The position numbers and the translations under genes were made by a program. From IMG/VR virus record IMGVR_UViG_3300042445_001604, positions 19,367 to 83,366 of that record: a stretch of DNA of 64,000 bases, one strand, 5' to 3'. Positions 28,674-49,162 of the stretch are shown here, one piece after another. The notes under the pieces are model-generated. The model was given only the letters and a program-made list of their open reading frames with translations, did not search any database and was not told the origin of the DNA. Source of the DNA: a virus. The first letter of the stretch is position 1, and the number at the start of each line of letters is the position of its first letter.

Positions 28674-28990
28674 CGCCACCGCCCGCCCCGCAAGGGGCGG
28701 GCAACCCCAAGCCCACACCGCCACGACCTAGCCCCGAAGCCCCCCGCCAGCCCACCAGCCAGCGGGGGGTTTCGCGTTGCCCGCCCCAGCCACCGACACC
28801 AGCCCGCCACGACACCGCGCACACCGACCGCGTACGCCCGCGCACCGCGCACCGCGCCCCGCCACGCGCCCGCCACGCGCCCACGCCCGCCGACCCCGAA
28901 ACGCGCCCGACCGACCGCGCACACACCCGCGCCCCAAAGTATATGTTTTTTGAGCGACCGCGCCCACCACCCGCGCAACCACCGCGCTAC

Positions 28991-29019
28991 TTGCGAATGT
29001 CCGCGCTATGGTGTAGACT
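28991..29019 (+). promoter_or_regulatory. sigma-A-type early promoter
   Basis: TTGCGA-N17-TAGACT. Confidence 0.7.
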
Positions 29020-29061
29020 GATTACATCAGCAAGACACCACGAACAAAGGACACAAACAAA

Positions 29062-29235
29062 ATGAGCACCACCCCCACCTACACCGTCTGGTCAAGCGGA
29101 ACTCTCGCGCAGACCAACGCGGAAACCGAAGTTTACTTTTTCCGTTTCGATTGGGTGAATGTCTGGGCGACCAACGCAGACACCGCTAGGGCAATTGTTC
29201 TCCAACTTATGGAAGACGAATTCGCAAAGCGCTAA
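29062..29235 (+). CDS. hypothetical protein (57 aa), paralog of 38616..38792
   Basis: MSTTPTYTVWS...FFRFDWVNVWAT; AAAGGA RBS; terminator follows. Confidence 0.8.
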   Translation: MSTTPTYTVWSSGTLAQTNAETEVYFFRFDWVNVWATNADTARAIVLQLMEDEFAKR

Positions 29236-29377
29236 CGCGCCACGCGGGCGGGCGGGGAAACCCGCCCGCTTTCGCGTACCCGCCCACGACACGCCCGACA
29301 CTCTCACCGCTTGACTTTTGTTTGATACCGTGATAGACTTGCGATAGCAAGTCACCACAACGAAAGGACAAACCAGA

Positions 29378-29509
29378 ATGAACGTCATTCTCACCGCCAC
29401 CTACACGGACGGCACAGTCGAAACATTCACCACCAAGCGCGGACAGCACTACCGCCTAGTCCAAGCACTACGCAACGCGGGCGCGACCGTCACGGGCGTA
29501 CTCGCCTAG
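29378..29509 (+). CDS. hypothetical protein (43 aa)
   Basis: TTGACT..TAGACT promoter, ACGAAAGGA RBS, hairpin+T terminator 29524-29553. Confidence 0.75.
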   Translation: MNVILTATYTDGTVETFTTKRGQHYRLVQALRNAGATVTGVLA

Positions 29510-29640
29510 CACACGCACCACGCAACGCCCGCCGAGAGATTGGCGGGCGTTTTGCGTTTCCCGTCCGCGCACCCGTGCCCGCCGACCACGCTCAAAAAAG
29601 GTGTACTTTCCCCGCGCCCACCCGCCGACGTCGTGGATAC

Positions 29641-29669
29641 TTGACAAACGCCCGCGCTACTGGTATGAT
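29641..29669 (+). promoter_or_regulatory. sigma-A-type early promoter
   Basis: TTGACA-N17-TATGAT. Confidence 0.8.
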
Positions 29670-29704
29670 GATGTCATCAGCAACACCAAACAAGGAGATA
29701 CAAA

Positions 29705-29902
29705 ATGACCAGCACCCCCGCCACCGTTCTCGGTTCGGTTATGATTACCGCCGTCCTCGCGAACGGTATGCCCGTGAAAATGGTTCAGCACGTCGGTAAC
29801 GAAAACGTGCTTGACGACTACCGCGAGATGTACGCTACTCTCGTCGCGCTTGGCAAGTACCAGAGCGCCACCGTCGAAGCATACGGCTACCGCAACGCCT
29901 AA
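29705..29902 (+). CDS. hypothetical protein (65 aa)
   Basis: AAGGAG RBS, promoter and terminator. Confidence 0.8.
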   Translation: MTSTPATVLGSVMITAVLANGMPVKMVQHVGNENVLDDYREMYATLVALGKYQSATVEAYGYRNA

Positions 29903-30048
29903 CACGCGCCACACGAACGCCCCGCCGAAACGCGGGGCGTTCGCTTTTGTCCGCGACACGCCAACACCGTAAGCACTTGCGAATGTCTGCCGTCTATGGT
30001 ATACTAAAAGTAAGAAGCAACACCACACCAAACAAAGGACAAAACGAA

Positions 30049-30186
30049 ATGACCACCGTCACCGCCAACTTTGGAAACCGCACCGAGAGCGTAGACGTCC
30101 CCGACGCCTACATTGACGACGTGATTGACGACTACTTTGCGAATGGCGCGATTACCGTCACGACCAACAGCGACGCACTCGTCTAA
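30049..30186 (+). CDS. hypothetical acidic protein (45 aa)
   Basis: TTGCGA-N17-TATACT promoter, AAAGGA RBS, terminator. Confidence 0.8.
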   Translation: MTTVTANFGNRTESVDVPDAYIDDVIDDYFANGAITVTTNSDALV

Positions 30187-30393
30187 CGCCCGCCAGCGAC
30201 GCCCCCGCCGAAACGCGGGGGCGTTGTCGTTTGCGCTCATCGCGACCGCGCAACACCCGCGCCCCGCGTTGCTCAAAAAACATATACTTTTGCCCGCGCA
30301 CCGCGAGCGCCCCGCGACACGATAAAACGGTACGACTTGCGAAAATAAATAATCCCTGGTAGAGTGGTGGTACACCACGACGAAAGGAACACA

Positions 30394-30666
30394 ATGACAA
30401 ACGCCGAACTAAAACGAGAAATTCGCACGGAACTCAAACGCGCTGGCGAATGGGTATCCAAAAGTTCTACCACCGCAGTACGCAGTTTTCACAACGCAAC
30501 TAGCGGGTGGAACATTAGCGAGTTTGCTGGGAATGTCCAACTCAACTATGTTCGAAACGGAATGGGCGCGACAACGCAGGACGACTTGGCGCGAGCGTTT
30601 GCTATTCTCGCAAACGCTGGGCTAGGCGTAGAGATTAGGGACAACCGAGTGTTTGTGTCCGCATAA
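30394..30666 (+). CDS. hypothetical protein (90 aa)
   Basis: TTGCGA-N17-TAGAGT promoter, ACGACGAAAGGA RBS. Confidence 0.8.
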   Translation: MTNAELKREIRTELKRAGEWVSKSSTTAVRSFHNATSGWNISEFAGNVQLNYVRNGMGATTQDDLARAFAILANAGLGVEIRDNRVFVSA

Positions 30667-30874
30667 GCAATCGTCAAACCGAGCGGGCGGGGAGAAATCC
30701 CCGTCCGTTTTCTTTTTGCGTAACCGCGCACCCCCCGCGCCCGCCGACCACGCTCAAAAAAGGTATACTTTTTCGACCCCGCCCCACCGCGACCGTCACG
30801 ATTAGGTTGTGTCGGCAGTAGATGATATACTTGACACAACGCGGGAAACCGCCTAACCAAAGGACACAAACGAA

Positions 30875-31168
30875 ATGACCACCACATACCCCACACGCGT
30901 AATGGACACCCCTACGCTTCTCAACCAAATCGGGCAGATGAACTTCCTAGCCATCTCTGGCGGGCGTATTGCCTACGACAACAACAACGGCGTTATCTTG
31001 CCCGTATCGAACGGCTACATTGTCCGTATCGTCCTCGCTGGAAACGACACCTACCGAGTAACGCGCGAATACAAGCGTGGCACTTACACCGTCAAGCGCG
31101 AGTGGACAGATGTTTACTGTGACGAAATCGGGGAAATCGCGTATCTCGCTTCTTGCTTCCGCGACTAA
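30875..31168 (+). CDS. hypothetical protein (97 aa)
   Basis: AAAGGA RBS; terminator 31181-31208. Confidence 0.8.
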   Translation: MTTTYPTRVMDTPTLLNQIGQMNFLAISGGRIAYDNNNGVILPVSNGYIVRIVLAGNDTYRVTREYKRGTYTVKREWTDVYCDEIGEIAYLASCFRD

Positions 31169-31260
31169 AAATCAAAACGCAAACGCCCGCGCTAACCACG
31201 CGGGCGTTCTGCTTTTACCCGCGCAACCGCGAGCGCCGAAAGTATATGTTTTTTGAGTGA

Positions 31261-32670
31261 CTACCGCGAGCCGAAAATACGCCCGCCCGTACGCCCACCG
31301 CGTCCGAGCGTAATGCGCCGTCCCGCGACAGACTTAGCCGTAATGTTCCCGCCCAAAAACCCAGCGGGTGGTTTGATGAGCAACGCCGTGAGCGCGTGAA
31401 CGAGCGCGTCCACGCGGTCTGGGGATTTTCCCTCGCCCGGTATCCACGACGTCATTTGACTTTCTAGTTCCGCGAGAAACCCTATGTGATGTACGCGCCC
31501 TTGTTCGTAGGCGAGCGTAATCGGTTCTGCCCTCAACGCTTTTCCGTACTTCGAGTGAACTTCCAACACTTGGATTGTCGGGTCGATTGTTTGGATTGCG
31601 TTACGCACTAACGCCCCACCTTGATTGACTTCTGCGACGACGGGGCAACCCCACTTGCGAGCCATTGCCACAACCCGTTCTGCCCACACCGTAGGCGAGC
31701 CAAGCACCGAAGCGTCCTCAATTACCCACGATTGACGTTTGTATAGGTCGCGTTCACCCGTGCTTGCGACGACGACGATACCGCACTCATCACGGGGATT
31801 TTCAGCAACCGACGGGTCTACGCCGATTACGCGCAACGGTACTGATGACGGCATACCGTTTTGACGATTGTTTTCGATTAGTTCGTCCGTCCACAACGCG
31901 CCCTCAACCGCGTCCAACATTTCACCGTAAAGTTCTTGACGGGCTAACCGCGTACCTTCGTAAACGCCCGTGATTGCGTCTATGTATGATGACGACAAGT
32001 TGCCCGCGTTATCCATTGTTGAGCCACGCGATACCCAGATTTTTCCTGTCTTGTCCGCTTCGCCCAACAAGTCATATAAAAGTTTTACGCGCTTCGGCGT
32101 TGTTGTTGCCAAGATTTGTGGATTGCTTCCGAGTCGAGTAGCGACGCGCAAGTTATCCCACGACGACATTCCCGCTGCGTCTGGCGTCTGACGCCACGCT
32201 GCAACTTCGTCTGCCCACGAGTAGTTTGCTTGGACACCACGCAAGGAGTCTGGTTCATCTGCCGTGCCGAGCAACGCGACGTTTCCGTTTGGCCAGGTCA
32301 GACGGCGCTTCGACGGTTCATACAACGGCATCTCCGACGGCGGGGATACACTCATAATTCCCGAATCGCCCTCAACCAAAACGTCACGCACGTCCGCTGC
32401 GGTACGAGCAACTAAAAGGAAACGCAACTTTCCCTCTGATGTTACTCGCGCTTTTTCGCGTACCCATTCAGCAGCCGAGCGCGTCTTACCCGCGCCACGT
32501 CCTGCGAGAAACAAACCAACATTCCACGACGAATCTTTCGGCGGGATTTGTTCGGGTCGTCCCCAAAAGTCCCACGCCCATAGTAAGTTGTCTGGGTCTA
32601 TGCCCGCCATTGCTTCGGCGCGTTCTGCTTCGGGGAGTGCCGCTACGATTTGCGCGAGTGATTGTGCCAT
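31261..32670 (-). CDS. terL: terminase large subunit
   Basis: Walker A AGRGAGKT, Walker B WADE, TTTP coupling motif, RNase H-like VIGVDPS and SPDRVDA. Confidence 0.95.
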   Translation of the reverse strand: MAQSLAQIVAALPEAERAEAMAGIDPDNLLWAWDFWGRPEQIPPKDSSWNVGLFLAGRGAGKTRSAAEWVREKARVTSEGKLRFLLVARTAADVRDVLVEGDSGIMSVSPPSEMPLYEPSKRRLTWPNGNVALLGTADEPDSLRGVQANYSWADEVAAWRQTPDAAGMSSWDNLRVATRLGSNPQILATTTPKRVKLLYDLLGEADKTGKIWVSRGSTMDNAGNLSSSYIDAITGVYEGTRLARQELYGEMLDAVEGALWTDELIENNRQNGMPSSVPLRVIGVDPSVAENPRDECGIVVVASTGERDLYKRQSWVIEDASVLGSPTVWAERVVAMARKWGCPVVAEVNQGGALVRNAIQTIDPTIQVLEVHSKYGKALRAEPITLAYEQGRVHHIGFLAELESQMTSWIPGEGKSPDRVDALVHALTALLIKPPAGFLGGNITAKSVAGRRITLGRGGRTGGRIFGSR

Positions 32671-32767
32671 TTACTCATCATACCACTCAAAAAACCTATA
32701 CTTCTGGCAACCGCCTGCCGAGCAAAAGAAAAACCCCCCGCCCGTAGGCGAGGGGCTGGGGGAAGAC

Positions 32768-32935
32768 TTAGTAGTCTTCGCGCGGGTCGTACCCGCCTGC
32801 CCCACGCGCCACATTGTGGCACGGAAGACAGCGTTCCACGGGGTCGCCCGCGTGGAAGAACAGCACGGGGGAAAAGTCCCCGCATGCCTCGCACTCGCGC
32901 TCGCGAGTGAAGGGGTTTTCGTCAAGGTCGAACAC
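32768..32935 (-). CDS. small Zn-ribbon protein (CxxC...CxxC)
   Basis: GTG after CGAAAGGA; TTGACT..TAGTCT promoter. Confidence 0.7.
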   Translation of the reverse strand: MFDLDENPFTRERECEACGDFSPVLFFHAGDPVERCLPCHNVARGAGGYDPREDY

Positions 32936-33109
32936 GAGAAAATCCTTTCGGTTGGTGGAACACCAGACTAACACACATCACACACAAAGTCAAGTCCCGA
33001 CGCACCGCGTAGCCCCCCGCGCTGAAAGTATATGTTTTTTGAGTAGCCACCCCGAAGTCCGCCCCAAAAGGAAAACCCCCCGCTTCCGCGAGGGGCTTCC
33101 GTGTCCGCG

Positions 33110-33361
33110 TTACCGCGAGCGACGAGCGTAGCGAGGGGCGCGATAAGTTACCGCGTTCCAAGCGAACAGAATTACCGAGATGGTCAGCGCACCGATTGCT
33201 TCTGCGAGCGCCATACCGCCGACATAGAACTCAAAACTTTCGCCGTACTTGATTGCGTCGGTGATGAGAATGAGCGAGATAAATCCCGCAACGCCCAGAA
33301 AGAAAAGGGCGACGCCCGCGCGTACTTTCCGCGCGGAGTTGGTGTTGGTGGTGTTTGTCAT
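33110..33361 (-). CDS. small two-TM membrane protein (leaderless)
   Basis: TTGACA-N18-TATACT-N6-ATG; two hydrophobic segments. Confidence 0.8.
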   Translation of the reverse strand: MTNTTNTNSARKVRAGVALFFLGVAGFISLILITDAIKYGESFEFYVGGMALAEAIGALTISVILFAWNAVTYRAPRYARRSR

Positions 33362-33365
33362 AGGA

Positions 33366-33557
33366 CTAGTATATCACTTTGTCCAGCGCAATGTCAAATG
33401 GTTCGAAGCCGAGCGCGTTGCCAATTTCGATACCGTTTGTGCGAGCGTAAATGCGAGCATTCACGAGCGAGTTCGACGTGATTTTCACCGTGTCGTATTC
33501 GAGTGCCGTCACGCCGAGCGCTTCGAACTCGAATGTGTATGCGTTGTTATTTGTCAT
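33366..33557 (-). CDS. hypothetical protein (63 aa, leaderless)
   Basis: TTGACA-N17-TATAGT-N6-ATG. Confidence 0.75.
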   Translation of the reverse strand: MTNNNAYTFEFEALGVTALEYDTVKITSNSLVNARIYARTNGIEIGNALGFEPFDIALDKVIY

Positions 33558-33714
33558 ACACCCACTATACCAAGTAACGTAGCGTTTGTCAAGTCGCAAG
33601 ATGAGCGTGTCGCCAACCCCCGCCCGCTACTCAAAAAACATATACTTTCCCCGACGCCCGTCGCAGGAAACACGGAAGCCCCCCACCCAAAGGTGAGGGG
33701 CTTCTTTGCGAGGA

Positions 33715-33819
33715 CTACTCGCCGTAGTAGCCGTAGTCCTCGTCCGTGCCAAACCCCGCGCTGGCGAGCGCGTCGGCGTCCGCCCAAGCGTCGTCGCCGT
33801 CGTAGTCGTCAAAGTCCAT
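33715..33819 (-). CDS. 34-aa highly acidic peptide (MDFDDYDGDDAWADADALASAGFGTDEDYGYYGE)
   Basis: ACGACGAAAGG RBS, TTGACT..TAGACT promoter, terminator 33677-33703. Confidence 0.8.
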   Translation of the reverse strand: MDFDDYDGDDAWADADALASAGFGTDEDYGYYGE

Positions 33820-33993
33820 TGTCCCCCCCTTTCGTCGTTGCCACCAGTCTACCCCATAGCACCGACAAAGTCAAGCAACGACACACCGAGCGAGGCTCAT
33901 CACCCGCGCACGGAAAGTACACCTTTTTTGAGCCACGCCCCGCGCACAGCAAAACGCCCGCCGTTTCCAGCGGGCGCTTGCGAGAGGCGGGCG

Positions 33994-34446
33994 TTACACC
34001 CGCGAGGCGCACACCGGGCCGATACCCGCGCTAACCGACTTCGGGTCGGTGAGGAACGCGCTACACACACAGCAGATACCCGTTTCCACGCCCCACGCTT
34101 TCGCTTCGTCAAGGGTCATACGGTCGTCAGCGGTGATGAGGCGCATTGCGCCCTGCTCGAAAACGAACGTGTTGTTCGCCCAGTCGAGTTTCTTGGCGTA
34201 GAGGCGTCCGCTCTCACGCGAACGCTGAATGCGGTAAATGTCGCCGTTTGCGAGGCGGTACATTCCGAGTTCGAGTTCGACGAACGAAACCCGCGAGGCG
34301 GGCTTGGGCATTGCGAGCAAAAACTCAATGAGTTCGCTCGCTTCGCGGACGGTCAAGCCAGCCGACTTGCGCTCGGCAAGGTCGTACTCGCGCTCACTCG
34401 CGAGCGAGGTGAGGAACGAAATTTGCTTGGGAGTTGCGGGGTTCAT
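33994..34446 (-). CDS. DUF6011-like Zn-binding protein
   Basis: C-terminal GICCVCSAFLTDPKSVSAGIGPVC; N-terminal PATPKQISFL helix module. Confidence 0.8.
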   Translation of the reverse strand: MNPATPKQISFLTSLASEREYDLAERKSAGLTVREASELIEFLLAMPKPASRVSFVELELGMYRLANGDIYRIQRSRESGRLYAKKLDWANNTFVFEQGAMRLITADDRMTLDEAKAWGVETGICCVCSAFLTDPKSVSAGIGPVCASRV

Positions 34447-34647
34447 CTTGTGTCCTTTCGGTGGTGGGTGCTTCGTGCTTCCAGTCTAACACACACCTAC
34501 GACAAACGCAAGTCACGACACACATTCGGCGTTTCCGCGAGCGCCGACGGCGCACCCGCGCTCGCCCCGCGCGAAAGTATATGTTTTTTGAGCCAGCGGG
34601 GAAAAGAAAAACCCCCGCGCAAGGAGAATACGCGGGGGGCTTTCTTT

Positions 34648-34945: not shown

Positions 34946-35473
34946 TTATGACTTTGATTTCAGCACTTGGTATGAGCCACCGTCGCCGTTCAGTTGGGGC
35001 ATATACCCGTACCGAGCCAGACGGAAACGGATACTCGCGGGCGTTACGCCCAACCGCTTTGCCAGACGATAAATTGTCACGCCCTCGACCGTCCGAGCGT
35101 GGTTGAGTAGTCGTGAAAACTCCTCGCCCTCTGCCCGAAACGCGGGAGATTTTCCGCGCACTTGGGAAGCGAGTGGACGCAATTCACGCAACCGCGCAAG
35201 TGTGTCCGCGTTCGGCTCGGTGTAAACGGGCTTCATCTTTTCGGCAACGACGGGCGGAAGCGGGATTTCGTCGAACACAATTCCAACGGTGTTTACCGTC
35301 GCAATTTGTCGTACTCGTTCCCGCGTAATTCCCGTTGCTTCGGATATGGACTGTAATGTCCAACCCGCGTTTCGTAGTGCTGTGATGTAATCGTTTCGTT
35401 CGTTGATACCTAGCGTTGTGAACTTTTCGTGGACTTCGCTAGGCAAGGTTAGGTTTGTTTTGCGAAACCGCAT
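34946..35473 (-). CDS. double helix-turn-helix DNA-binding protein (paralog of 26976..27491)
   Basis: AGWTLQSISEATGITRERVRQI and GVTIYRLAKRLGVTPASIRFRL. Confidence 0.8.
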   Translation of the reverse strand: MRFRKTNLTLPSEVHEKFTTLGINERNDYITALRNAGWTLQSISEATGITRERVRQIATVNTVGIVFDEIPLPPVVAEKMKPVYTEPNADTLARLRELRPLASQVRGKSPAFRAEGEEFSRLLNHARTVEGVTIYRLAKRLGVTPASIRFRLARYGYMPQLNGDGGSYQVLKSKS

Positions 35474-35587: not shown

Positions 35588-36013
35588 CTATGCTAGAATT
35601 AGTTTGACTGTCCTGTCCCCAGCGAAAAGGGATTTTAGAAACTCTGCGTCGATTTCTCCGTCGCCCAACTTCTTATCGGCACGATACGCTTTCACCGCGT
35701 TGAGTGTCAATGCTTCGTAATAACCGGGCTTTGCTTGACGGACAATTTCGTAGCCCAAGTCAAACAAACGACGCTGAACTTGCCAAACCGACATTGACGT
35801 TTTGCTTTTTTTGTTCTCGAAAATAATGTTGCGCTCTAAAACTTCGACAAGTTCCGACGGCGCACTTTCCGCAGGACTTGTGACAGCAATTTCCTCGGCG
35901 GGTGTCGGCGCGATTTCTTCCTCGACTACCGCGAACATTTTGTCTTCGTCGGAAAGTACATCTTTTTTGAGTGACGACGGCGTGGTCGGCACGGGAGTTT
36001 TCTCATCTGACAT
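35588..36013 (-). CDS. peptidoglycan-binding-domain protein
   Basis: SVWQVQRRLFDLGY...GYYEALTLNAVKAYRADKKL..GEID (PG_binding_1-like). Confidence 0.7.
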   Translation of the reverse strand: MSDEKTPVPTTPSSLKKDVLSDEDKMFAVVEEEIAPTPAEEIAVTSPAESAPSELVEVLERNIIFENKKSKTSMSVWQVQRRLFDLGYEIVRQAKPGYYEALTLNAVKAYRADKKLGDGEIDAEFLKSLFAGDRTVKLILA

Positions 36014-36015
36014 TG

Positions 36016-36186: not shown

Positions 36187-36229
36187 TCTGCTATCGTACC
36201 ACAATTACTTTGTGTAACAACGGCGCGTG

Positions 36230-36614: not shown

Positions 36615-36727
36615 TGCGTGTCCTTTCGTTGTGGTGTACCACCAGTCTACTACATACCTACGACATTGTCAAGTACCGACGGCGCACCCGCGCTGGGGGA
36701 AAGTATATGTTTTTTGAGTACGGCGCG

Positions 36728-36894
36728 AAAAAAGAAACGCGAGAGATTTTTCTCCCGCGTTCCGATTTGTCAAGTTTAGGGTGAGCATTTGTTTCGAGCA
36801 GACGCACATACTCAGGTGCGGAGAGCCGTCTGTTATGTTGCTAAACTGTTCGGCTCTCTTACAGTTTAGGGTGGTAGCCCACACTTTGGCTACA
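36728..36894 (-). ncRNA. putative structured non-coding RNA (~165 nt, two predicted pseudoknots)
   Basis: TTGACA-N17-TAGTAT promoter (36928-36900), no RBS or ORF (begins ATG-TAG), several complementary segments, intrinsic terminator 36728-36763. Confidence 0.7.
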
Positions 36895-36929
36895 TCTAAA
36901 TACTAGCACACGGCAATCCAAATGTCAAG

Positions 36930-37217: not shown

Positions 37218-37336
37218 ACCCCGACGGTACAACATCACCCGCGCATTGTCAAGCCCCGCGTTACTCAAAAAAACTATACTTTTGATTTCCCGGCCAAAAA
37301 AGAAACGGGGGACTTTCGCCCCCCGCCCTTTCCTTT

Positions 37337-37552: not shown

Positions 37553-37744
37553 TTCACTTCCTTTCGTCGTGGTGTCTTGCTTTGTAGTTTCAGTATACAC
37601 CCCACCACCGACATTGTCAAGTCCTGACGAAAAAATCTTTTCTGACATAATCCCAAAAATCCAAAAGTATACCTTTTTTGAGCAACTGCCGACCGCGCAC
37701 GGGAAACCCGCCCGCGCTCTCGCGTGGGCGGGCGACCGCGCCGA

Positions 37745-38416: not shown

Positions 38417-38615
38417 TCTGTTCCCCTTTTCTTTGTAGTTATCAAGTCCAGCAATTGCTGGTAGTAACCACTTTACACTAGTTCGACCAAAAGCGCAATA
38501 CCAAAAATTCTCGGGCGTGTCACCCGCGCACCTACCGCGCACAAAAGTACACCTTTTTTGAGCGCACCGCGATAGGCGGGCGGGGCTTGCGCCCGCACCC
38601 GCCCGACCGCCCGCG

Positions 38616-39356: not shown

Positions 39357-39582
39357 TGTGTTTCCCTTCGTCGTGTGGTGTGACTTGCTACTGCCACTCT
39401 ACTCTGACCGCAATCAAAAGTCAAGCGTCGCTGACGCGGGCGTGTCGTCACCGCGCACCGCGCTCGCTCAAAAAACCTATACTTTTGGACGGCGCAAGAG
39501 AATCCCCCGCGCGGACAAAGGGGAAACAAAACCGCGCGGGGGAAGTTTGGGGAGAGGGGACTTTCGTCCCCCCTCGGACGGC

Positions 39583-39870
39583 TTACGCCGTGACGAGAAC
39601 CGTGAAGTTCGTCGTCTTGGCGAGCGCGTTGTAAAGGTCGGCGTCGGCGTCCTTGAGGTCGCTTGCGCTGACGGTGACGCGCGTGCGCTCGCTCACCTTG
39701 AGGACGGTGACGCCCGCGAGGGTCGCAACCGTGGCGTCGCCGAGAATCTGGCGGATACGCGCCTCGGCGTCCTTCTTGGCGTTCTCCGCGTCGCGGATAA
39801 CCGCCTTGGCGTCCTCGAAGTCCTTGAGGGCTTTTGCGCCCTCGAGGTCGAGGGAGATGGTGTTCGTCAT
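39583..39870 (-). CDS. small coiled-coil protein, paralog family with 28377 and 42101
   Basis: Strong codon bias; C-terminal FTVLVTA identical to 42101..42394. Confidence 0.85.
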   Translation of the reverse strand: MTNTISLDLEGAKALKDFEDAKAVIRDAENAKKDAEARIRQILGDATVATLAGVTVLKVSERTRVTVSASDLKDADADLYNALAKTTNFTVLVTA

Positions 39871-40037
39871 TGTGGTAGTGCCTTTCGTTTGAGGGAGAGC
39901 CAATCTCGCCCTGTGATATCAGTATACATACGACCACGGACATTGTCAAGTCGAAACGCAAAAAACTTTTTTTATTTTTGACTTGACTTTGTCCGAGGAC
40001 TATGATACACTTATGGAACAACGACGAAAGGGAAAAA

Positions 40038-40145: not shown

Positions 40146-40295
40146 GGACGGCGCGAGCGGGCGGGCTTCGGCTCGCTCGCTTTCCCGCGCCCGCGCTCGG
40201 CGCGACAAAAGTACACCTTTTTTGAGCGAGTGCCCGCGCCCGCGAGCGGAAACGCGAAACGCCCGCACCTTTCGGCACGGGCGTCGCGTCGTCGG

Positions 40296-40768: not shown

Positions 40769-40962
40769 TGTGTTGCCTTTCGTCGTTGTGGTGTAGTACC
40801 ACTCTACCAGGGACTACCGACATTCGCAAGTCTGCCGAGCGTCGGCGCGTCGCCCCGCGCCCGCCAGCGGGCGAAAGTATACCTTTTTTGAGCGGGTGTC
40901 GGCGCGTGGCGGGCGACGGCGCGAGAAACGCGAGCGCGAGTTTCCCCGCGCCCGCGCGTCCC

Positions 40963-41642: not shown

Positions 41643-41814
41643 TGTCTTTCCTTTCGTTGTGTCTTGCGTGTATCTCCATTGTAGCGACGACCACGGACAC
41701 GAAACTAAATTGCCCGCGCGTCGTCCCGCGCGTCCCGCGCCACTCAAAAAACCTATACTTTCACCGCGCACGGCAGAAGCCCCACCCTTTCGGGTGAGGC
41801 GACCGCGCGAGGCG

Positions 41815-42100: not shown

Positions 42101-42394
42101 TTACGCGGTGACGAGGACGGTGAAGTCCGTGACCTTTGCGAGGCGGTTGTAGAGTGCTTCGTCCGCTTCTTTGACCGCGCTGGCGGTAATCGAAACGCGT
42201 GTCCGTGCGCTTACGCGAACGGCGGTGATGCCCGCAATCGTGCCAGCGGTAGCCGTGCCGAGAGCCTCGCGGATAACTGCTTCCGCTTCGGTCTTGACTG
42301 CTTCCGCTTCGCGGATAACGCGCTTCGCTTCCTCGAAGCGGTGGAGTGCGCTGACCGCTTCTAGGTCGAACGCGACGGTGGTCGTGGTGTCCAT
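42101..42394 (-). CDS. small coiled-coil protein, paralog family with 28377 and 39583
   Basis: High similarity to 39583..39870. Confidence 0.85.
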   Translation of the reverse strand: MDTTTTVAFDLEAVSALHRFEEAKRVIREAEAVKTEAEAVIREALGTATAGTIAGITAVRVSARTRVSITASAVKEADEALYNRLAKVTDFTVLVTA

Positions 42395-42642
42395 TCTGTA
42401 TTTCCTTTCGTTGAGGGAGAGCCAATCTCGCCCTATGTCATTGAGTTTAGCGTATGTCGTTTTGTTTGTCAAGTCCATTCGCAAACTTTCTTTATTGAGT
42501 TATGTCGAAAGTCTATCCGCGACCACGGACACGAAACTCGACCGCGCACGGCGACGGCGAAAAGTATACCTTTTTTGAGCGACCGCACGGCGCGGAAAAC
42601 GACGAACGCCCTGCCCTTTCGAGCAGAGCGTCCGCGCGTTGG

Positions 42643-42993: not shown

Positions 42994-43163
42994 TTTGTTT
43001 CCTTTCGTCGTGTGTTTGTCCTGCCCTATCAGTATAGCGACTATCTCGCCACTTGTCAAGTCTGACCGCACGATAGTTTTGCGGGCGCGTCGCCACTCAA
43101 AAAACCTATACTTTCGAGCGACGAAAAAAGGACGGGCGCTTTCGCGCCCGCCCCCGTCACCCG

Positions 43164-43301
43164 TTAGAGAAACTCAATCGGGTCGCGGTCCTCGAAAATA
43201 TCTTCGAGTTCCGAGAGCGAAAACCCGTCAGAGTTTTCCCAGAAGTCCGAGAGTGCTTCGCGGATACGGTCGCCCTGCTCGTCGGTCGTGTGCTTGTCCA
43301 T
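43164..43301 (-). CDS. 45-aa acidic peptide
   Basis: Conserved RBS; MDKHTTDEQ...ELEDIFEDRDPIEFL. Confidence 0.7.
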   Translation of the reverse strand: MDKHTTDEQGDRIREALSDFWENSDGFSLSELEDIFEDRDPIEFL

Positions 43302-43343
43302 TGTGTCACCGTCCTTTCGTCGTGTCGTGGTGTACTACCCACC

Positions 43344-43616
43344 TTACACTATGACGGTCGGTCTGTCAAGTTCACCCGTCAAGTGGTCGAGTTCGGTCAT
43401 CACCACGCCAGCACGGGCGAGTATCTGCCCGACGGTCACACCTAACGCGCTCGCCACCCGTTCGAGTAGTTCGCTGGACATTTCCTTTTTTCCGTGCTCG
43501 ACGTTGTTCAGGTGTCCGACGGCAACGTGAGCGAGCGACGCCACCGTTACTCCGTAGAGTTGTTGCTCGGTTCGCATTTCGCGTATCGTGTACCCGACGG
43601 CTTCTCTCATCAGCAT
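43344..43616 (-). CDS. XRE-family HTH regulator, ClgR-like
   Basis: MLMREAVGYTIREMR...HLNNVEHGKKEMSSELLERVASALGV resembles actinobacterial ClgR. Confidence 0.75.
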   Translation of the reverse strand: MLMREAVGYTIREMRTEQQLYGVTVASLAHVAVGHLNNVEHGKKEMSSELLERVASALGVTVGQILARAGVVMTELDHLTGELDRPTVIV

Positions 43617-43620
43617 ACGG

Positions 43621-43917
43621 TTACAATACCACGCGGTCGAGTGCGTCGTCGAAGAAGTCCTCGGCGAGTCCTGAGAAGGCGCTCGCCGTTGTGCTGAAAG
43701 AGTAGACGGCTCGGTCGGTCGAGTCGAGTACGCACTTGGCGAGTACCGCGCTTCGCGCAATCGCGTCGGGCAGACTGGCGTACCATTCGTCCCACGCGTT
43801 CACCACGCCGTCGTCCCACGCCAAACGGTAGCCGTTCTCACCGTCGTCGAGTTCGGTAATCGTCACCCGCGCGTCGTCCACGGGGAAGTCAATCAGAAGT
43901 TGCTCGTCGTATCCCAT
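43621..43917 (-). CDS. hypothetical acidic protein (98 aa)
   Basis: TAATG-coupled to the upstream gene. Confidence 0.75.
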   Translation of the reverse strand: MGYDEQLLIDFPVDDARVTITELDDGENGYRLAWDDGVVNAWDEWYASLPDAIARSAVLAKCVLDSTDRAVYSFSTTASAFSGLAEDFFDDALDRVVL

Positions 43918-44330
43918 TACTCGCCGTCCTTCCAAAGGTCGCCGTCCGCGCCGTAATGTTTCCAAAGCACCTCGGCTTGGGCAATCGCTTCGTCGAGTTC
44001 GTGAAAGACTTCGTTCAGGTCTTGGTCGCCGTCCTTGCGAGAGCAAACCTCAAACCACGGGTTGTTGTCCCAAATGAAGTAGTCCTCGCCCTTGTCCGCG
44101 AACGCTTGGAGTTCCGCGTCCGTGTTGATACCGAAGTCCCGCAGGTCGTCGGTGTACCGCACGACCGAGTATTCGTCGTCAGTTGATTTGCGAATGTTGA
44201 TTCGCATTTCACCATTCCGCGCGACATAGAAGCGCGGGTCGGGGAGAGTGCTGTCTTGCCAAACGATTTCGTAGTCGCTCGACCAAGTGTAGAAGCAAGC
44301 GTCTTGCTCGTACTGCTTGACTTCACTCAT
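43917..44330 (-). CDS. hypothetical acidic protein (137 aa)
   Basis: TAATG-coupled; WDNNPWFE motif. Confidence 0.8.
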   Translation of the reverse strand: MSEVKQYEQDACFYTWSSDYEIVWQDSTLPDPRFYVARNGEMRINIRKSTDDEYSVVRYTDDLRDFGINTDAELQAFADKGEDYFIWDNNPWFEVCSRKDGDQDLNEVFHELDEAIAQAEVLWKHYGADGDLWKDGE

Positions 44331-44467
44331 TAGTCCACCTCGCAGAAGTGGTTTGCCATTGAGATTTCGAGTTCCTCGGAAGTCGCGCCCTTGTCGTCCT
44401 TGCCACAGTTGTCGCAAGTCACCGCGTAGGTCACGCCCTCTGTCGGAGTGTGTGGGTTTAGTTCCAT
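44330..44467 (-). CDS. small CxxC..HxC protein (45 aa)
   Basis: Conserved RBS. Confidence 0.7.
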   Translation of the reverse strand: MELNPHTPTEGVTYAVTCDNCGKDDKGATSEELEISMANHFCEVD

Positions 44468-44546
44468 TGTGTTTCCTTTCGTCGTTTGTTTTTCCATTGT
44501 AGCAGGAAAGGGGACGGGACGCAAATCGCGCCCCGCCCCGCGTGTC

Positions 44547-44984
44547 TTACACGAACATCATTGAGGTTACGAGCGTGTCCTCTTTGTGGTCGTTGTGGTA
44601 CGAGGTCGTGGACTTCGAGAAGTCAACCTCGATACACCGCGCGTCAGTCAAGTTCCACTCCCACGCAATCCCGTAGCGGGTCAGCGCGGAGATGACGAGT
44701 TCGCCGTACACGGAGAGAGTTCCGTCGTCCGCGACCAAGCCGTCGTGGTTGAAGAAAACGGTACGCGCTTCGTGGTAGTCGTTTCCCGACTTGTGGTAAG
44801 CGTCGTCGCCCGAGATGTTCACGGACTGTCCCTGACCGCCGAACGACCAAATCGTGGCGGGGTTGGTGTGCTCACCGAGGTCGGCGCACGAACGGCAACA
44901 CGATACGACATTTCGTCGAACGCGAACGCCACCTGCGCGGAGTTCCTTGCTGAACTGCTTGACTCGAGTTTCGAGGTTTTCCAT
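44547..44984 (-). CDS. hypothetical protein with CCxxC motif (145 aa)
   Basis: TTGACA..TACAAT promoter, conserved RBS. Confidence 0.8.
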   Translation of the reverse strand: MENLETRVKQFSKELRAGGVRVRRNVVSCCRSCADLGEHTNPATIWSFGGQGQSVNISGDDAYHKSGNDYHEARTVFFNHDGLVADDGTLSVYGELVISALTRYGIAWEWNLTDARCIEVDFSKSTTSYHNDHKEDTLVTSMMFV

Positions 44985-45071
44985 TTTGTTTCCTTTCGTC
45001 GTGTGTCTTGCTGTTCTTTTATTGTAGCACAGGTGACGGACATTTGTCAAGTCCGCCACCCGCGCGTGTCG

Positions 45072-45236
45072 CTAGACGATTTCGTCCGCGTAGTCAATCG
45101 TGAACTCTCCACCAACCGCGTCGAACTCGTCCATTGACATTCCACGAGCAATCTCAATCGCTTCGTCTGGGTCGTTGGCTTCGACAGTTGTGTTGTAGTT
45201 CACAATCCGCGTTGCTGTGATTTCGTACTTTGCCAT
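45072..45236 (-). CDS. DpnD/PcfM-like small protein (54 aa)
   Basis: MAKYEITATR...VEANDPDEAIEIAR pattern; promoter and RBS. Confidence 0.7.
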   Translation of the reverse strand: MAKYEITATRIVNYNTTVEANDPDEAIEIARGMSMDEFDAVGGEFTIDYADEIV

Positions 45237-45386
45237 TGTGGCTTCCTTTCGTCGTTGTAGTCAGTATAGCAGTTATCCCCGACAAGTCAAATTCATTTTG
45301 CTCGGCGCGTCGTGGTCGAAAAAGTATACCTTTTTTGAGCGAGGCGCGAACGGGCGAAGCGGGCTTCCGCCCGCCCCGCGCGTTGG

Positions 45387-45746
45387 CTATCGGTTCATCT
45401 CGAAAGACGGGTCGCACTTGTAGCAGTACGCTTCGTACCCGTCGCGGTCAATCGGCTTCCCGCAGTCGTCGCAGAGGATACCAGCGGTGAACGGTTCTAC
45501 CGCGCTTTTCATCTGGACGGCTTCCACCCAGTCGGCTTCGACGGTCTGCTCGGAGAAGCACGACGGGCAGAGAAGTCGTCCGTCGTCGGTCAGCGTTTGC
45601 TCGCCAAAGAAGTTCGCGCAGTCCACGCAGTCAAAGATGAATACGAGGTTCTTGCGCTCGCCGTCTTTAAGTTCGGTCTGGTACTGAAACCAGTCCGTGT
45701 CGCAGGTCACGCAGTCGAAGTTGTTCCAGTCGTGTTGGTGTGTCAT
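45387..45746 (-). CDS. multi-CxxC Zn-finger protein (119 aa)
   Basis: Five CxxC pairs; conserved RBS. Confidence 0.8.
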   Translation of the reverse strand: MTHQHDWNNFDCVTCDTDWFQYQTELKDGERKNLVFIFDCVDCANFFGEQTLTDDGRLLCPSCFSEQTVEADWVEAVQMKSAVEPFTAGILCDDCGKPIDRDGYEAYCYKCDPSFEMNR

Positions 45747-45836
45747 TGTGCTTCCTTTCGTCGTGTGTTTGTGTTGCTATCTCTCTATCATAGCCACGAG
45801 AGGCGAGGTTGTCAAGTCCTCGCCCCTCGCGTGTCG

Positions 45837-46205
45837 CTATGCCCAGACGATAGTTGCGTTCTGAACGCCGTCCTTTGTGAACCGCCACATCTCGCCGTCC
45901 TCGCCACGGAACGACATTGCGCTATCGCCTATCGCGTGACGGAGAATGGTGTGGAGAAACACTTCGGTAATCGTGTGCCACTTGCTGTCGAAAGCGTTGA
46001 GAACGAACTCGTCGCTGTCGTACATAAAGTCGAACCCCCTCGCCAATACTTCCTGTTCGAGGTCAGTCGGAATGTCCACCGACCACATAGCCATTTCCGA
46101 GTTGTTGTGCTCCTCGTATGTCTTGGCGAGGTCGGCAAGTACCGCTTCTTTTTGGTCGGTGGGGATAATGATGTTCCCCTCGTGATGAACTGCGTAGTAA
46201 CCCAT
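45837..46205 (-). CDS. hypothetical protein (122 aa)
   Basis: FRGEDGEMWRF motif; conserved RBS. Confidence 0.8.
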   Translation of the reverse strand: MGYYAVHHEGNIIIPTDQKEAVLADLAKTYEEHNNSEMAMWSVDIPTDLEQEVLARGFDFMYDSDEFVLNAFDSKWHTITEVFLHTILRHAIGDSAMSFRGEDGEMWRFTKDGVQNATIVWA

Positions 46206-46291
46206 TGTGTATCCTTTCGTCGTTTGTTTGGTGCTGTCTGACTATGGTAGCACGATTGGGCGCGGAAGTCAAACTCCCACGCCCCACCGTG

Positions 46292-46828
46292 TTATCCGTC
46301 CTCGCCCAGAGCCTCGTCGCGCAAGCGAATGTGCTCGGCTAGGTCGTCGGGGTCAATGTCGGTTGTGTACCCACACTCGTCGCACGATACCGTTTCGGCT
46401 TCGAGGTTCACCGTGCCCATAGTTCCCTCGTGCTGGCAGGTGACGGTGAGAGGCGGGTTGAGGTATCGGTTCGCAATGGCGCTCGCCGTACCAGCGCGTT
46501 GCTCGTCGGTTGCGTTCTCGACCTCTGCCCAGTCCTCGTCCGTCCACTCGCTCGTGTCAATGACTTCGAGGTTTTGTGCCGTGCCGAATGAACCGTCGGT
46601 GGCGAAATAGGTGCTCGCCCGTTCGGGTATGAGAAGGTGTCCCAGTTTCGCGCTGACGCGACTATCGAACTCGTCCTCGCCGTCACCGTCGGGGCGTACC
46701 CACTCCTCGCTGTCGTTGTCCCACCACGACGCCGTGCCAATGCGTGACATTAGCAGTTCGTCGTCCACCCAGAAGTTGCCGTTCTCGGTGTCGTAAAAGA
46801 CCGTGAAGTAAATCTGCTTGCTCGCCAT
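46292..46828 (-). CDS. acidic hypothetical protein (178 aa)
   Basis: AGGAGA RBS; operon with two upstream small genes. Confidence 0.8.
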   Translation of the reverse strand: MASKQIYFTVFYDTENGNFWVDDELLMSRIGTASWWDNDSEEWVRPDGDGEDEFDSRVSAKLGHLLIPERASTYFATDGSFGTAQNLEVIDTSEWTDEDWAEVENATDEQRAGTASAIANRYLNPPLTVTCQHEGTMGTVNLEAETVSCDECGYTTDIDPDDLAEHIRLRDEALGEDG

Positions 46829-46830
46829 TG

Positions 46831-47007
46831 TTACTTCTCCTCTGCTTTGTATTCGTCAAGGAAACGGAGAACGAAAAGGTATGCTTCCTCTGCGCCCTTT
46901 GCGTATGAGTAGTCAAGACCGTCGCCGTCAAGGTCGGTGTCCTGTTGTTCCGTAGCAAAGATATCTGCTTGTCGCGTGAGAAAGTCACGCAGTTCTTGTT
47001 CATTCAT
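46831..47007 (-). CDS. hypothetical protein (58 aa)
   Basis: MNEQELRDFL...; fills the operon gap, GAAGGA RBS. Confidence 0.7.
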   Translation of the reverse strand: MNEQELRDFLTRQADIFATEQQDTDLDGDGLDYSYAKGAEEAYLFVLRFLDEYKAEEK

Positions 47008-47009
47008 TG

Positions 47010-47156
47010 TTACTGTCCTTCCGTGAGTTGGTTGTAGATGTTCTCGAACGCCTCGCGCGCAAACTGGTCGGGGTCGTTCTCGTCGAGGAACTGACCAATA
47101 AAGCCAGTCAGAATGTCCGCGTGGATTTCGGGGACGGTGATGTTGATGTTATTCAT
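47010..47156 (-). CDS. hypothetical protein (48 aa)
   Basis: TTGACA..TATGAT promoter, conserved RBS. Confidence 0.75.
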   Translation of the reverse strand: MNNINITVPEIHADILTGFIGQFLDENDPDQFAREAFENIYNQLTEGQ

Positions 47157-47236
47157 TTGCTTTCCTTTCGTCGTTTGGATAGTTCTATCATAGCGAACGC
47201 GAGGGCGAATGTCAAGTCCGCCCCCGCGTGTTGCCA

Positions 47237-47560
47237 TTAGGTCAAGTCGGACTTGGTGCTGTACGCCCACATAGCGCCGACCTGTGCTTCCAAGAAGTCA
47301 CGCGCCAAACTCTCAATCGCGTCACGGAAGTCGGCAAGCCCATTGTTTGCCCACGCGCCCCACACAGTAATGCTGTCGTTGTCAATAGCGTCTGCGAGCG
47401 TGTAGTAGTCCTTTTCCAGCACCTCGTCAATGCGCTCGTGGATAGCGTCCCAGCCAGCGGACGGGTCGCTGAACAACTGACCAAGAGCGTAGCCCTGTGA
47501 AAGTTCCGTGTAGAAACTCTGCTGTTCAGGTGTGAGTGTGTTCCAGAAATCGTAATTCAT
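47237..47560 (-). CDS. hypothetical protein (107 aa)
   Basis: TTGACT..TATTAT promoter, conserved RBS. Confidence 0.8.
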   Translation of the reverse strand: MNYDFWNTLTPEQQSFYTELSQGYALGQLFSDPSAGWDAIHERIDEVLEKDYYTLADAIDNDSITVWGAWANNGLADFRDAIESLARDFLEAQVGAMWAYSTKSDLT

Positions 47561-47637
47561 TTTGTATCCTTTCGTCGTTTGTGTTTTTATAATAGCAGGT
47601 TTGGGTGGCGAAGTCAAATCCTCGCCACCCGCGCCTG

Positions 47638-48123
47638 TTACCAACTTGCTTGATACTCGAAGTCCCAGCCCTCTAACTTGGGGTTGGAGAGGATTTTTCC
47701 GAGAGCCTCGCGGGTCTGCTCCAAGTCCTTCCAGTACCACTCGTCAATCTCTGTCGAGCCGAAGAAGAACCCACCCTGCGGAGGCAGGAGGTCGGGGTCG
47801 CGCTCTGTGAGAGTTTCGTGAACCAAGTCGCGCAGTTCCACCAACTTCTCGCGGGACACCCACATTGGTCGGCAGTCGTCCTCGCCGTCCGCGCAGTTGT
47901 CCACGAACCACTGGTGAACCGAGTTCACCTTGCGCCAGTAGGCAATCGTAACTTCGACACTCCCAAACGGAACTTCGTCCCGAATGTCAGAGAGTTCCAG
48001 TCCAGCGAACTCCAACAGTTTGGCGAACTCTGGGTTCTCCTCCTGATAGAACTCGCCATTGCGTTGTCCATAGTTTTTCCCCGAAACGCCTTTGGAGGCT
48101 CGGAGGTATTGGTCTAGTCCCAC
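47638..48123 (-). CDS. conserved phage hypothetical protein (MGLDQYL...YWRK.N..H.WF...YQASW family)
   Basis: Characteristic motifs; conserved RBS. Confidence 0.85.
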   Translation of the reverse strand: MGLDQYLRASKGVSGKNYGQRNGEFYQEENPEFAKLLEFAGLELSDIRDEVPFGSVEVTIAYWRKVNSVHQWFVDNCADGEDDCRPMWVSREKLVELRDLVHETLTERDPDLLPPQGGFFFGSTEIDEWYWKDLEQTREALGKILSNPKLEGWDFEYQASW

Positions 48124-48211
48124 TTCATTTCCTTTCGTCGTTTGTTGTTGGTGCGGAGTGCTACCGCATTAGTTTTACAATAGCACCCCGCGTTGGGAAT
48201 GTCAAGTCCGA

Positions 48212-48487
48212 TTACTCGAACTTGTCACCCTCGATTTCCGTGTGTTCCCGAACAAGGTAAAAATCGTGTTCCTCGTTCTTGGGGTCGAACGCGCGTTGGA
48301 ACTCTGCTTCATCTTGGAAGTAGAACCAAATGCGCTGGTCGAAGTCCTCGTCCTCTACCATTTTCTCGTAGAGGTCGGGGTCGTTGAGAATGACAACTTG
48401 TGCCATTGTGTCACCGGGAATGTAGCCCGAAGCGGGATTGACTTCATCTCGCCATTCGTAGTCCACCCAAGTTACTCGTTCAGACAT
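48212..48487 (-). CDS. hypothetical acidic protein (91 aa)
   Basis: Promoter and conserved RBS. Confidence 0.8.
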   Translation of the reverse strand: MSERVTWVDYEWRDEVNPASGYIPGDTMAQVVILNDPDLYEKMVEDEDFDQRIWFYFQDEAEFQRAFDPKNEEHDFYLVREHTEIEGDKFE

Positions 48488-48573
48488 TGTGTTTCCTTTC
48501 GTCGTGTTTGTCATAGTGCCATTGTAGCAACAATGCGGGGAGAAGTCAAATCCAACTTCTCCCCGCGTGTCGC

Positions 48574-48987
48574 CTAGTAGGTTGCGGGCGTGATGTTGTC
48601 GCCCAAGAACGAGAAGTGCTCAACGAAATCGTTGATACTGATGAACCTGCCCTCGCCCTTGTTGTTGTAGGCAGTTGCCTCACCATTCAGGTAGCGATAC
48701 TTCTCCGAACCAATGTTGAGAATGACAGCCACCCAGCCATCTGCGAGGTGCTTCTGAAAGAACTCCCCCCACTCGACTTCGGGTTCGTCTGTATCGTCGT
48801 CCGCGCTCCACGCGAACCAGTCAATTCCGTCGCCGTCCTCGTTGTCCATAAATCCGAACAGCGTCTGTCCGTCGTCAGTCTTGCTTCGGAGGAGTTCGAC
48901 ATTGCACTTCGCAATGTCCGCGAGGAATGCTTCCTCGTCCTTGACGGCGAAGTAGTTAGTTCGCCCCTGTGCAATGTAATTTGCCAT
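48574..48987 (-). CDS. hypothetical protein (137 aa; RTNYF.VKD...GSEKYRYL family)
   Basis: TTGACA..TATATT promoter, conserved RBS. Confidence 0.85.
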   Translation of the reverse strand: MANYIAQGRTNYFAVKDEEAFLADIAKCNVELLRSKTDDGQTLFGFMDNEDGDGIDWFAWSADDDTDEPEVEWGEFFQKHLADGWVAVILNIGSEKYRYLNGEATAYNNKGEGRFISINDFVEHFSFLGDNITPATY

Positions 48988-49162
48988 TGCGTTTCCTTTC
49001 GTCGTTTGTCAGTGGTATTCAGTTGTAGAACCAATATAGCAAATATATCTCTGCTTGTCAACTTGTGTCCGCGAGCGCCGTACTCAAAAAACATACACTT
49101 TTGCAAAAAAGTGGCGGGACTCCCGCAATGGGAATCCCGCCGAGCCACGACGAAATGGCAAG

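Follow-up and report, generated by a model that had tools for sequence, protein, structure and literature searches.

We examined a 64,000-nucleotide window, bases 19367–83366 of the linear, 83,366-bp virus contig IMGVR_UViG_3300042445_001604 (~49% complete according to CheckV), which contains an array of small genes interspersed with 23 copies of an asymmetric 19-bp site, hereafter the 19-mer. Positions are those of the window. The source is an uncultured freshwater actinobacterial phage, and its portal and large terminase place it among the siphoviruses of actinobacteria. Its closest named relative is the metagenome-assembled Actinomycetia phage DSL-LC01 (69–73% identity), followed by Microbacterium and Arthrobacter phages of ~190 kb.

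Genes in the array were called by their highly regular ribosome-binding site (RBS; AAGGA, 6 nt, ATG), and the calls were checked against the related genome G001, described below, by the excess of third-codon-position substitutions. A rightward block of seven small genes (28377–31168) is followed by a leftward block of ~45 genes that runs from 52637 to 31261 and includes the large terminase gene, terL. A hairpin and a run of T end most genes, and 38 promoters of the form TTGACA-N17-TAnnnT point with the genes. These promoters have G at −14 in ~75% of cases, and TATACT is their most frequent −10 hexamer. Together, the RBS and gene calls, promoters, and terminators indicate an array of self-contained early cassettes read by host RNA polymerase (RNAP). 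The array is strongly mosaic, and many of its genes are clade-specific ORFans.

The 19-mer follows the pattern CTCAAAAAA-NN-TRTACTTT, that is, CTCAAAAAANNTRTACTTT. It has 21 exact matches, compared to 0.00 expected from shuffled sequences, and 23 copies when up to two mismatches are allowed, compared to 0.03 expected. The two additional copies carry one mismatch each: 32686 on the + strand ends in TTC, and 49083 on the + strand reads TACACTTT. A preliminary description of this DNA had reported 22 copies, 10 forward and 12 reverse, all of them intergenic. The repeat is real and far above chance, but its copies number 23, with 10 on the + strand and 13 on the − strand; 22 lie in spacers, and one (35953) lies 42–60 nt inside the open reading frame (ORF) 35588–36013. 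As that description stated, the left arm is invariant (23/23 copies) and the right arm nearly so: position 13 is A in 18 copies and G in five, and positions 14 and 19 each differ in a single copy. Conservation reaches beyond the arms, with a purine at −1 in 23/23 copies and a pyrimidine at +1 in 22/23. The core dinucleotide falls into the few classes listed earlier (CA 8–9, GG 9, CC 4, AC 1) and one, GA (1), that had been missed. Every copy lies within 28936–49101, and the rest of the 83,366-bp contig holds no further copy even at three mismatches, in agreement with the earlier statement that none occurs outside 28.9–49.1 kb. Density drops rightwards, as also described, with 22 sites in 28.9–45.4 kb and one at 49.1 kb. 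The 19-mers are 79–89% A+T and are embedded in strand-polar, CCGCGC-rich spacers.

Pattern scans of IMG/VR for multi-copy carriers recovered G001 with the exact pattern and G002 and G003 with a variant pattern. Conservation in relatives, which the preliminary description had proposed as a check, was thereby found in three carriers. G001 (3300032303_001548; ~87% nucleotide identity) has 22 copies of an unchanged motif, located as in this contig. G002 (3300028394_000214), whose terL is 97% identical, and G003 (3300028394_000360), which comes from the same sample but is more distant, carry the site with an altered right arm. The four records compared here are metagenomic fragments, 13–49% complete. 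Among the matches listed for metagenome contigs and GTDB genomes, there were only single chance matches in AT-rich genomes. GenBank phages gave no nucleotide match, and ~75 further terL relatives (≤81% identity) have neither the motif nor the CCGCGC bias.

G002 and G003 keep the left arm and have TACAYTTY as the right arm. At position 14, 44 of the 45 sites of this contig and G001 carry T, and all 23 sites of G002 and G003 carry C. Even the intragenic copy at 35953 changed likewise, from GATGTACTTT to GGTACACTTT, at the cost of two amino-acid changes. Identity within the site is 0.96 versus 0.80 and 0.78 in the 30-nt flanks for G001, and 0.83 versus 0.60 and 0.60 for G002, and several sites are conserved inside spacers that are otherwise unalignable. 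These conservation islands in diverged spacers point to purifying selection acting on the site. Two orthologous spacers hold it in inverted form relative to this contig, with its arms intact (45321 in G001 and 38544 in G002). The individual copies, with the portal and large terminase genes, are listed here; co-oriented and opposed refer to the direction of the arms relative to transcription.

24657–26339, − strand: portal gene
28936–28954, − strand: site, core CA; opposed to the + strand gene 29062–29235; −35 at 36 nt
29591–29609, + strand: site, core GG (GGTGTACTTT); co-oriented; −35 31 nt downstream
30272–30290, + strand: site, core CA; co-oriented
30753–30771, + strand: site, core GG; co-oriented; segment replaced in G001
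31239–31257, − strand: site, core CA; at the convergent boundary, 3 nt beyond the terL stop codon
31261–32670, − strand: large terminase gene, terL
32686–32704, + strand: site, core CC, one mismatch (TTC); opposed; adjoins the extended −10 (TGGTATGAT) of the leaderless terL
33025–33043, − strand: site, core CA; co-oriented; within a 343-bp cassette of site, promoter, gene, and terminator that is missing from G001
33630–33648, + strand: site, core CA; opposed
33914–33932, − strand: site, core GG (GGTGTACTTT); co-oriented
34574–34592, − strand: site, core CA; co-oriented; the G003 ortholog has CC, the sole exception to the core rule
35953–35971, − strand: site, core GA (GATGTACTTT); in ORF 35588–36013; G002 reads GGTACACTTT, with two residues altered
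36700–36718, − strand: site, core CA; co-oriented
37264–37282, + strand: site, core AC; opposed; next −35 just 11 nt away
37664–37682, − strand: site, core GG; co-oriented
38544–38562, − strand: site, core GG; co-oriented; the G002 spacer has a flipped site with core CC
39467–39485, + strand: site, core CC; opposed
40208–40226, − strand: site, core GG (GGTGTACTTT); co-oriented
40874–40892, − strand: site, core GG; co-oriented; CA in G001
41743–41761, + strand: site, core CC; opposed
42561–42579, − strand: site, core GG; co-oriented
43096–43114, + strand: site, core CC; opposed; the terminator T-run ends 9 nt before it
45321–45339, − strand: site, core GG; co-oriented; flipped in place in G001 (+ strand, core CC)
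49083–49101, + strand: site, core CA, right arm TACACTTT (the G002/G003 type); opposed

Along the direction of transcription, the elements appear in the order stop codon, terminator, site, promoter, RBS, and start codon. The site follows the stop codon by 47–97 nt and usually precedes the start codon by 85–130 nt, and all 22 site-bearing spacers hold exactly one. The median spacer length is 194.5 nt with a site versus 94 nt without one (23 spacers); the extra length is very GC-rich and strand-polar.

The arms are co-oriented with transcription at 14 sites, opposed to it at eight, and at the convergent terL boundary in one case. The earlier claim that orientation is unrelated to gene direction therefore holds for the arms, but it does not hold for the core: in this contig, G at position 10 occurs in 10/14 co-oriented versus 0/7 opposed sites (Fisher p = 0.004). 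Across the four genomes, with site orientation set by the adjacent promoter, the cores of co-oriented sites are GG 9, CA 12, CG 1, and CC 1, and those of opposed sites are CC 15, CA 5, and AC 1. G at position 10 is thus confined to co-oriented sites and CC almost confined to opposed ones; the sole exception among these 44 scorable sites is L439 1835 (G003), a co-oriented site with CC that is the ortholog of 34574 (CA). A site that has flipped in place retains the strand of its core, and the sense strand reads GG in either form. Because the array promoters favor G at −14 and TATACT, a GG core followed by TATACT amounts to a complete local −10 region. Plausibly, the right arm is promoter-like by accident, and selection would stop backward-facing sites from firing; the likeness of the right arm to the local −10 (GnTAnnnT) would then explain the non-promoter-like CC core of backward-facing sites. 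Promoter activity does not appear to be what conserves the site, since five co-oriented sites carry TGTACT, which is unable to act as a −10.

Sites of a similar kind occur in more distant terL relatives. Each of the motifs that follow is found within ~10 kb of early genes upstream of terL, between T-runs and TTGACA boxes, with ~0 copies expected. L360 (terL 75%) has five copies of GCGTGGAAAA-N6-RCCCTTT (three on the + strand, two on the −), L329 has five copies of GGGTGAAAWA-N6-RCCCC (two +, three −), and L297 has nine copies of ACACGGAAAA-N4-GAAAAA (eight +, one −). These sites and the 19-mer follow one plan, in which an arm that contains GC is succeeded by an A-tract, a few variable positions, and another arm. 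None of these two-orientation A-tract motifs was found in DSL-LC01, which has ~30 one-directional early promoters embedded in a GATTCT...AGAATC dyad. Taken together, the analogous sites and the DSL-LC01 dyad suggest that a conserved cis site in each early cassette is a family trait with a lineage-specific sequence.

Our preferred reading, which we hold tentatively and would place a little short of an even chance, is that the 19-mer serves as the binding site for a co-evolving, probably phage-encoded, sequence-specific protein that would control or insulate the cassettes. Such a site is suggested by the invariance over about two helical turns, the division into two blocks, the single copy per spacer, the placement outside transcription units, the indifference to orientation, the concerted change between lineages, and the analogues in other lineages. 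What the sequences show directly is where the site lies, how many copies there are, how well they are conserved, that they change in concert, and that their orientation is labile; that a protein binds the 19-mer, and with what effect, we infer. Since the putative reader appears to co-evolve with the site, it would probably be encoded by the phage. The preliminary description had offered a binding site as one of two possibilities, and that part fits the conservation islands, the one-per-spacer rule, the change at position 14, the flips, and the analogues; the binders that it named are unsupported, as detailed below.

In the proposed mechanism, the docking unit would be the 19-mer, or ~22 bp with the flanking R and Y. 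The reader would contact two successive major grooves (at RCTC and T..A.T, ~11 bp apart) across the narrow minor groove of A6, would bind with the site in either orientation, and would act on the whole array. The position of the site after the terminator and before the promoter suggests either insulation or coordinated control. Under the former, neighboring cassettes would be shielded from read-through and supercoiling by a roadblock or topological barrier; under the latter, early promoters used by host RNAP would be switched off or on jointly from upstream. A broader proposal, which we regard as doubtful, is that the 19-mer and its L360, L329, and L297 analogues form the cis half of a family-wide, fast-changing boundary system in freshwater actinophages. 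A putative reader bound once per spacer, in either orientation, would partition the micro-cassettes and switch them as a block, with the core tuned against backward firing, and the system would be a phage counterpart of insulator elements.

Several observations weigh against a protein docking site. The distance from the site to the next −35 is as variable as the preliminary description had it (11–88 bp, median ~36) and shows no helical phasing, a misfit with classical repression or activation. Roughly half of the promoter-bearing spacers, mostly in 45–52 kb, lack a site, and promoters therefore do not need one. The orthologous sites of the four genomes are non-independent samples. Finally, just two recognizable DNA-binding proteins are encoded nearby (34946–35473 and 26976–27506), and both fail covariation tests. 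The reader may be a clade-specific ORFan; given the incompleteness of the records, its gene could also lie in the missing half of the genome, or the host could supply it.

The gene at 34946–35473 (− strand) encodes a Sigma70_r4 domain and a second, r4_2-like helix-turn-helix (HTH). Its helix TRERVRQI equals the recognition helix of sigma-70 region 4.2, which reads the −35, in key residues; a confident structural model (pLDDT 86.5) gave weak sigma-like fold matches only. Its paralogue at 26976–27506 (− strand) matches HTH_23. The preliminary description had named double-HTH proteins as candidate binders. They are unsupported in that role because they are present in ~56 relatives without the motif, because their recognition helices are identical in this phage, G001, and G002 although the sites differ, and because their HTH signatures do not track motif type. 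In most relatives, the double-HTH genes flank terL, with one directly upstream of it. A search of ~50 early proteins against Pfam or PHROGs revealed no further DNA-binding domain. The other binder named earlier, host Lsr2, also finds no support: its AT-rich binding leaves the 17 invariant positions and the concerted change unexplained. As a separate matter, the 34946–35473 protein could be a small terminase subunit or a competitor for the TTGACA boxes of early promoters.

The other possibility raised in the preliminary description was a recombination site. In its wider form, which we consider quite unlikely, the 19-mer would be a conserved linker that provides shared homologies or true recombination sites for the exchange, insertion, deletion, or flipping of cassettes between co-infecting relatives. 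Such a role would suit the high mosaicism and clade-specific ORFans of the array, the sites that flip in place between genomes, and a 343-bp unit of site, promoter, gene, and terminator (32705–33043) that is missing in G001 with its break at the site edge. Several further indel edges between this contig and G001 lie 1–28 nt from a site, and shuffling mediated by promoter-early stem-loop (PeSL) cassettes has been documented in T4-like phages (PMC2839356). However, strict scoring places mosaic junctions at 3/23 sites versus 2/36 promoters; the sites are therefore not special, and an enrichment obtained by looser scoring vanished with promoters as controls. The arms are not inverted repeats (read outward, TTTTTTGAG and TATACTTT agree at 3/8 positions), there are no left–left or right–right hybrid sites, and a lone 19-mer is neither gained nor lost in any spacer. 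An attC-like fold is absent: the two flanks share a C-rich strand, and on either strand the fold is no better than that of shuffled sequence. Neither a resolvase (PF00239), a tyrosine integrase (PF00589), nor sigma region 2 was found in the four partial records (G000–G003); DSL-LC01 encodes a "recombinase family protein". Recombination at any 19–22 bp of identity would be a by-product that leaves the invariance unexplained. The earlier suggestion of a recombination site gained no specific support. A mobile micro-element of the REP or MITE type was likewise rejected, since no lone 19-mer is gained or lost and the GC-rich flanks keep their strand when a site flips.

An improbable alternative treats the 19-mer as a promoter-type element in which the right arm (TATACT, or TACAYT in relatives) is a −10 and CTCAAAAAA, at −23 to −15, replaces the −35, used by host RNAP alone or with a phage factor; the result would be a second class of promoter, sense at co-oriented sites and antisense at opposed ones. 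TATACT is the commonest −10 hexamer of the array, GG with TATACT fits the GnTAnnnT consensus, and G at −14 is confined to co-oriented sites. At terL, moreover, the site adjoins a leaderless extended −10 promoter, and more distant relatives use −35-less, extended −10 early promoters, upstream of which a conserved stretch matches the site at 11/17 positions. This explanation is at odds with the eight of 23 sites that face the preceding terminator instead of a gene, with the five TGTACT sites that lack the essential A at −11, and with the consensus promoter that stands 11–88 nt downstream in most cases. There is also no single TANNNT register (the local TGTACTTT uses positions 14–19 and TACATTTC of G002 uses 12–17), the most invariant part would be the spacer, and none of 32 promoter-like matches uses a site, the position 17 bp upstream of the right arm being GC-rich and unconserved. 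The earlier argument against a promoter, terminator, or polar stoperator holds up in that the sites have no −35 partner and no hairpin, and one third of them point away from genes. A structural DNA element or host nucleoid-protein site appears very unlikely. Here, an AT island that is bent and easy to melt (A6 with a phased T-tract), set in very GC-rich spacers, would absorb supercoils between strongly transcribed cassettes or nucleate an AT-binding host protein such as Lsr2, in keeping with the 79–89% A+T of the site, its strand-polar, CCGCGC-rich surroundings, its location between transcription units, and the A-tract kept in all analogous sites of relatives. Shape or AT content alone, however, requires neither 17 invariant positions nor CTC, a purine at −1, or a genome-wide T-to-C change, and the spacers in 45–52 kb work without a site. 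We give hardly any credence to a role in packaging or at a genome end, whether through binding by the small terminase subunit (the double-HTH protein encoded next to terL in relatives) or in the injection of first-entering DNA near a tract at 27.7 kb. The sites do bracket terL, their density falls away from the C/A-rich tract at 27.7–28.3 kb, and the double-HTH gene is directly upstream of terL in most relatives. Nevertheless, no known pac or cos region resembles 23 sites scattered over 20 kb in two orientations, the motif is missing from relatives with the same double-HTH protein, and the reading is speculative for a linear, ~49% complete contig.

Other element types were tried and rejected. 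For an intrinsic terminator, a terminator scan placed the hairpins upstream of the sites, not within them, and folds of site plus flank had z-scores of −1.2 to +0.5. A polar stoperator does not agree with the mixed orientation (14 co-oriented, eight opposed, one at a boundary). Half-site likenesses noted by eye to IHF (WATCAANNNNTTR), the HspR HAIR box (ACTCAAG), dif, the UP element, and the SigF/SigB −10 were partial motif matches only. Rfam gave no match at E ≤ 0.1 in 27000–51000, and a tRNA search was also empty.

Other features of the region are recorded here in their own right. HCCGCGC is strand-polar in 28600–49300, with 83 copies on the + strand versus 13 on the − strand and ~10 expected; the copies lie mostly in spacers, and the polarity is identical in the rightward and leftward gene blocks. 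The CCGCGC bias is limited to the 19-mer clade (it is also seen in L294 and L295, with GCGCGG at 57–59 versus 10–12 in the reversed loci). Speculatively, an exonuclease that came in from the direction of 27.7 kb would meet the copies in an orientation suited to a Chi-like signal. Positions 27700–28300 and 28780–28935 hold a tandem tract rich in C and A, with hardly any G or T on the + strand; its units include CAGCCCACGA and ACGACAGACAGACCACC. An AT-rich stretch (27660–27700) comes before the tract, which lies where transcription diverges and may represent a genome end, a pac region, or an origin; no comparable C/A-rich block occurs between terL and portal in DSL-LC01. DSL-LC01 also lacks a 3.5-kb inverted block of seven small genes that is found here between terL and the portal module. 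Three paralogous small coiled-coil proteins are encoded in the array, at 28377–28673 (+ strand), 39583–39903 (− strand), and 42101–42394 (− strand), and one of them matches the C-terminal part of phrog_434, a PHROG annotated as a RecE-like recombination exonuclease (E = 2.5e-10).

The terL gene is apparently leaderless (32670–32704), with the extended −10 (TGGTATGAT) 6 nt upstream of its ATG and a 19-mer in the place of the −35. At 36728–36928 (− strand), the ~165 nt between a promoter (TTGACA-N17-TAGTAT, at 36928) and a terminator contain neither an RBS nor an ORF; Rfam gave no match in this cassette. In DSL-LC01 (L051), the early promoters in 22600–43320 share (A)GATTCT-AAAG(A/T)TGTTATAAT-AGAATC, in which an extended −10 lies inside a 6-bp inverted repeat in an operator-like arrangement, and a conserved leader, AACGACGAAAGGACAA, follows. 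A further terL relative of 59% G+C, L303, has eight exact copies of GGACATGGAA in 781–10906 (11 with one mismatch allowed), in both orientations, some of them within or close to coding regions.

How lytic phages keep their early arrays of small host-takeover genes ordered is poorly understood, and the grammar of the present array is unusually clear: terminator, one invariant site, promoter. Because sister lineages carry different versions of it, the site and its putative reader would form a natural series of matched specificities. Such a series could be used to find the reader protein and to test for boundary elements in bacterial viruses. The spacers also mark the points at which new ORFan genes are gained and lost.

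Among known systems, the PeSL cassettes of T4-like phages (PMC2839356, PMC4122927) offer one parallel. Both are dense arrays of small ORFans in which each gene has its own sigma-70-type early promoter and a terminator, and in both, conserved intergenic motifs mark a plastic region where the indels and replacements of relatives fall (in the present array, at promoters and terminators as well). In contrast to PeSL, which is the promoter and stem-loop itself, the 19-mer is a third element between terminator and promoter; it is found in either orientation and varies far less than promoter or stem-loop does.

The stoperators of cluster A mycobacteriophages such as L5 and Bxb1 are dispersed, asymmetric sites of 13–19 bp through which one phage protein controls many units. 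They lie inside transcription units, in a single orientation relative to transcription, where the immunity repressor of a temperate phage uses them as polar roadblocks. The 19-mer resembles them in its many dispersed copies, its asymmetry, and its conservation across relatives, but it lies outside transcription units in both orientations, and no repressor or integrase was found in the available partial contigs (13–49% complete). The CIRs of the temperate Streptomyces phage phiC31 are 17-bp, repressor-bound palindromes dispersed in early intergenic regions. The 19-mers are likewise highly conserved, dispersed early-region sites near promoters and terminators, although they lack dyad symmetry.

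Repeated intergenic motifs are also found in other actinobacteriophages, namely, those of Microbacterium: an 18-bp asymmetric motif in cluster EC, inverted repeats in EG and O, and SAS/ESAS in EF and K (PMC7302621). These motifs are ~17–30 bp long, are repeated 5–12 times in short intergenic regions, and are conserved within clusters, and their function is not known (PMC7302621). Whereas they are uniformly oriented or palindromic and sit at a fixed 14–30 bp from the start codon, the 19-mer is asymmetric, points in both directions, lies upstream of the promoter at 85–130 nt from the start codon, and is present in 23 copies. By the features that define the PeSL, stoperator, CIR, and EC/EG/EF motifs, the 19-mer belongs to none of them, as it is not a promoter plus stem-loop and is not single-oriented, palindromic, or at a fixed distance. 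What distinguishes it from described phage motifs is its presence in either orientation with evolutionary flips, its concerted genome-wide change, and a core that follows the direction of transcription.

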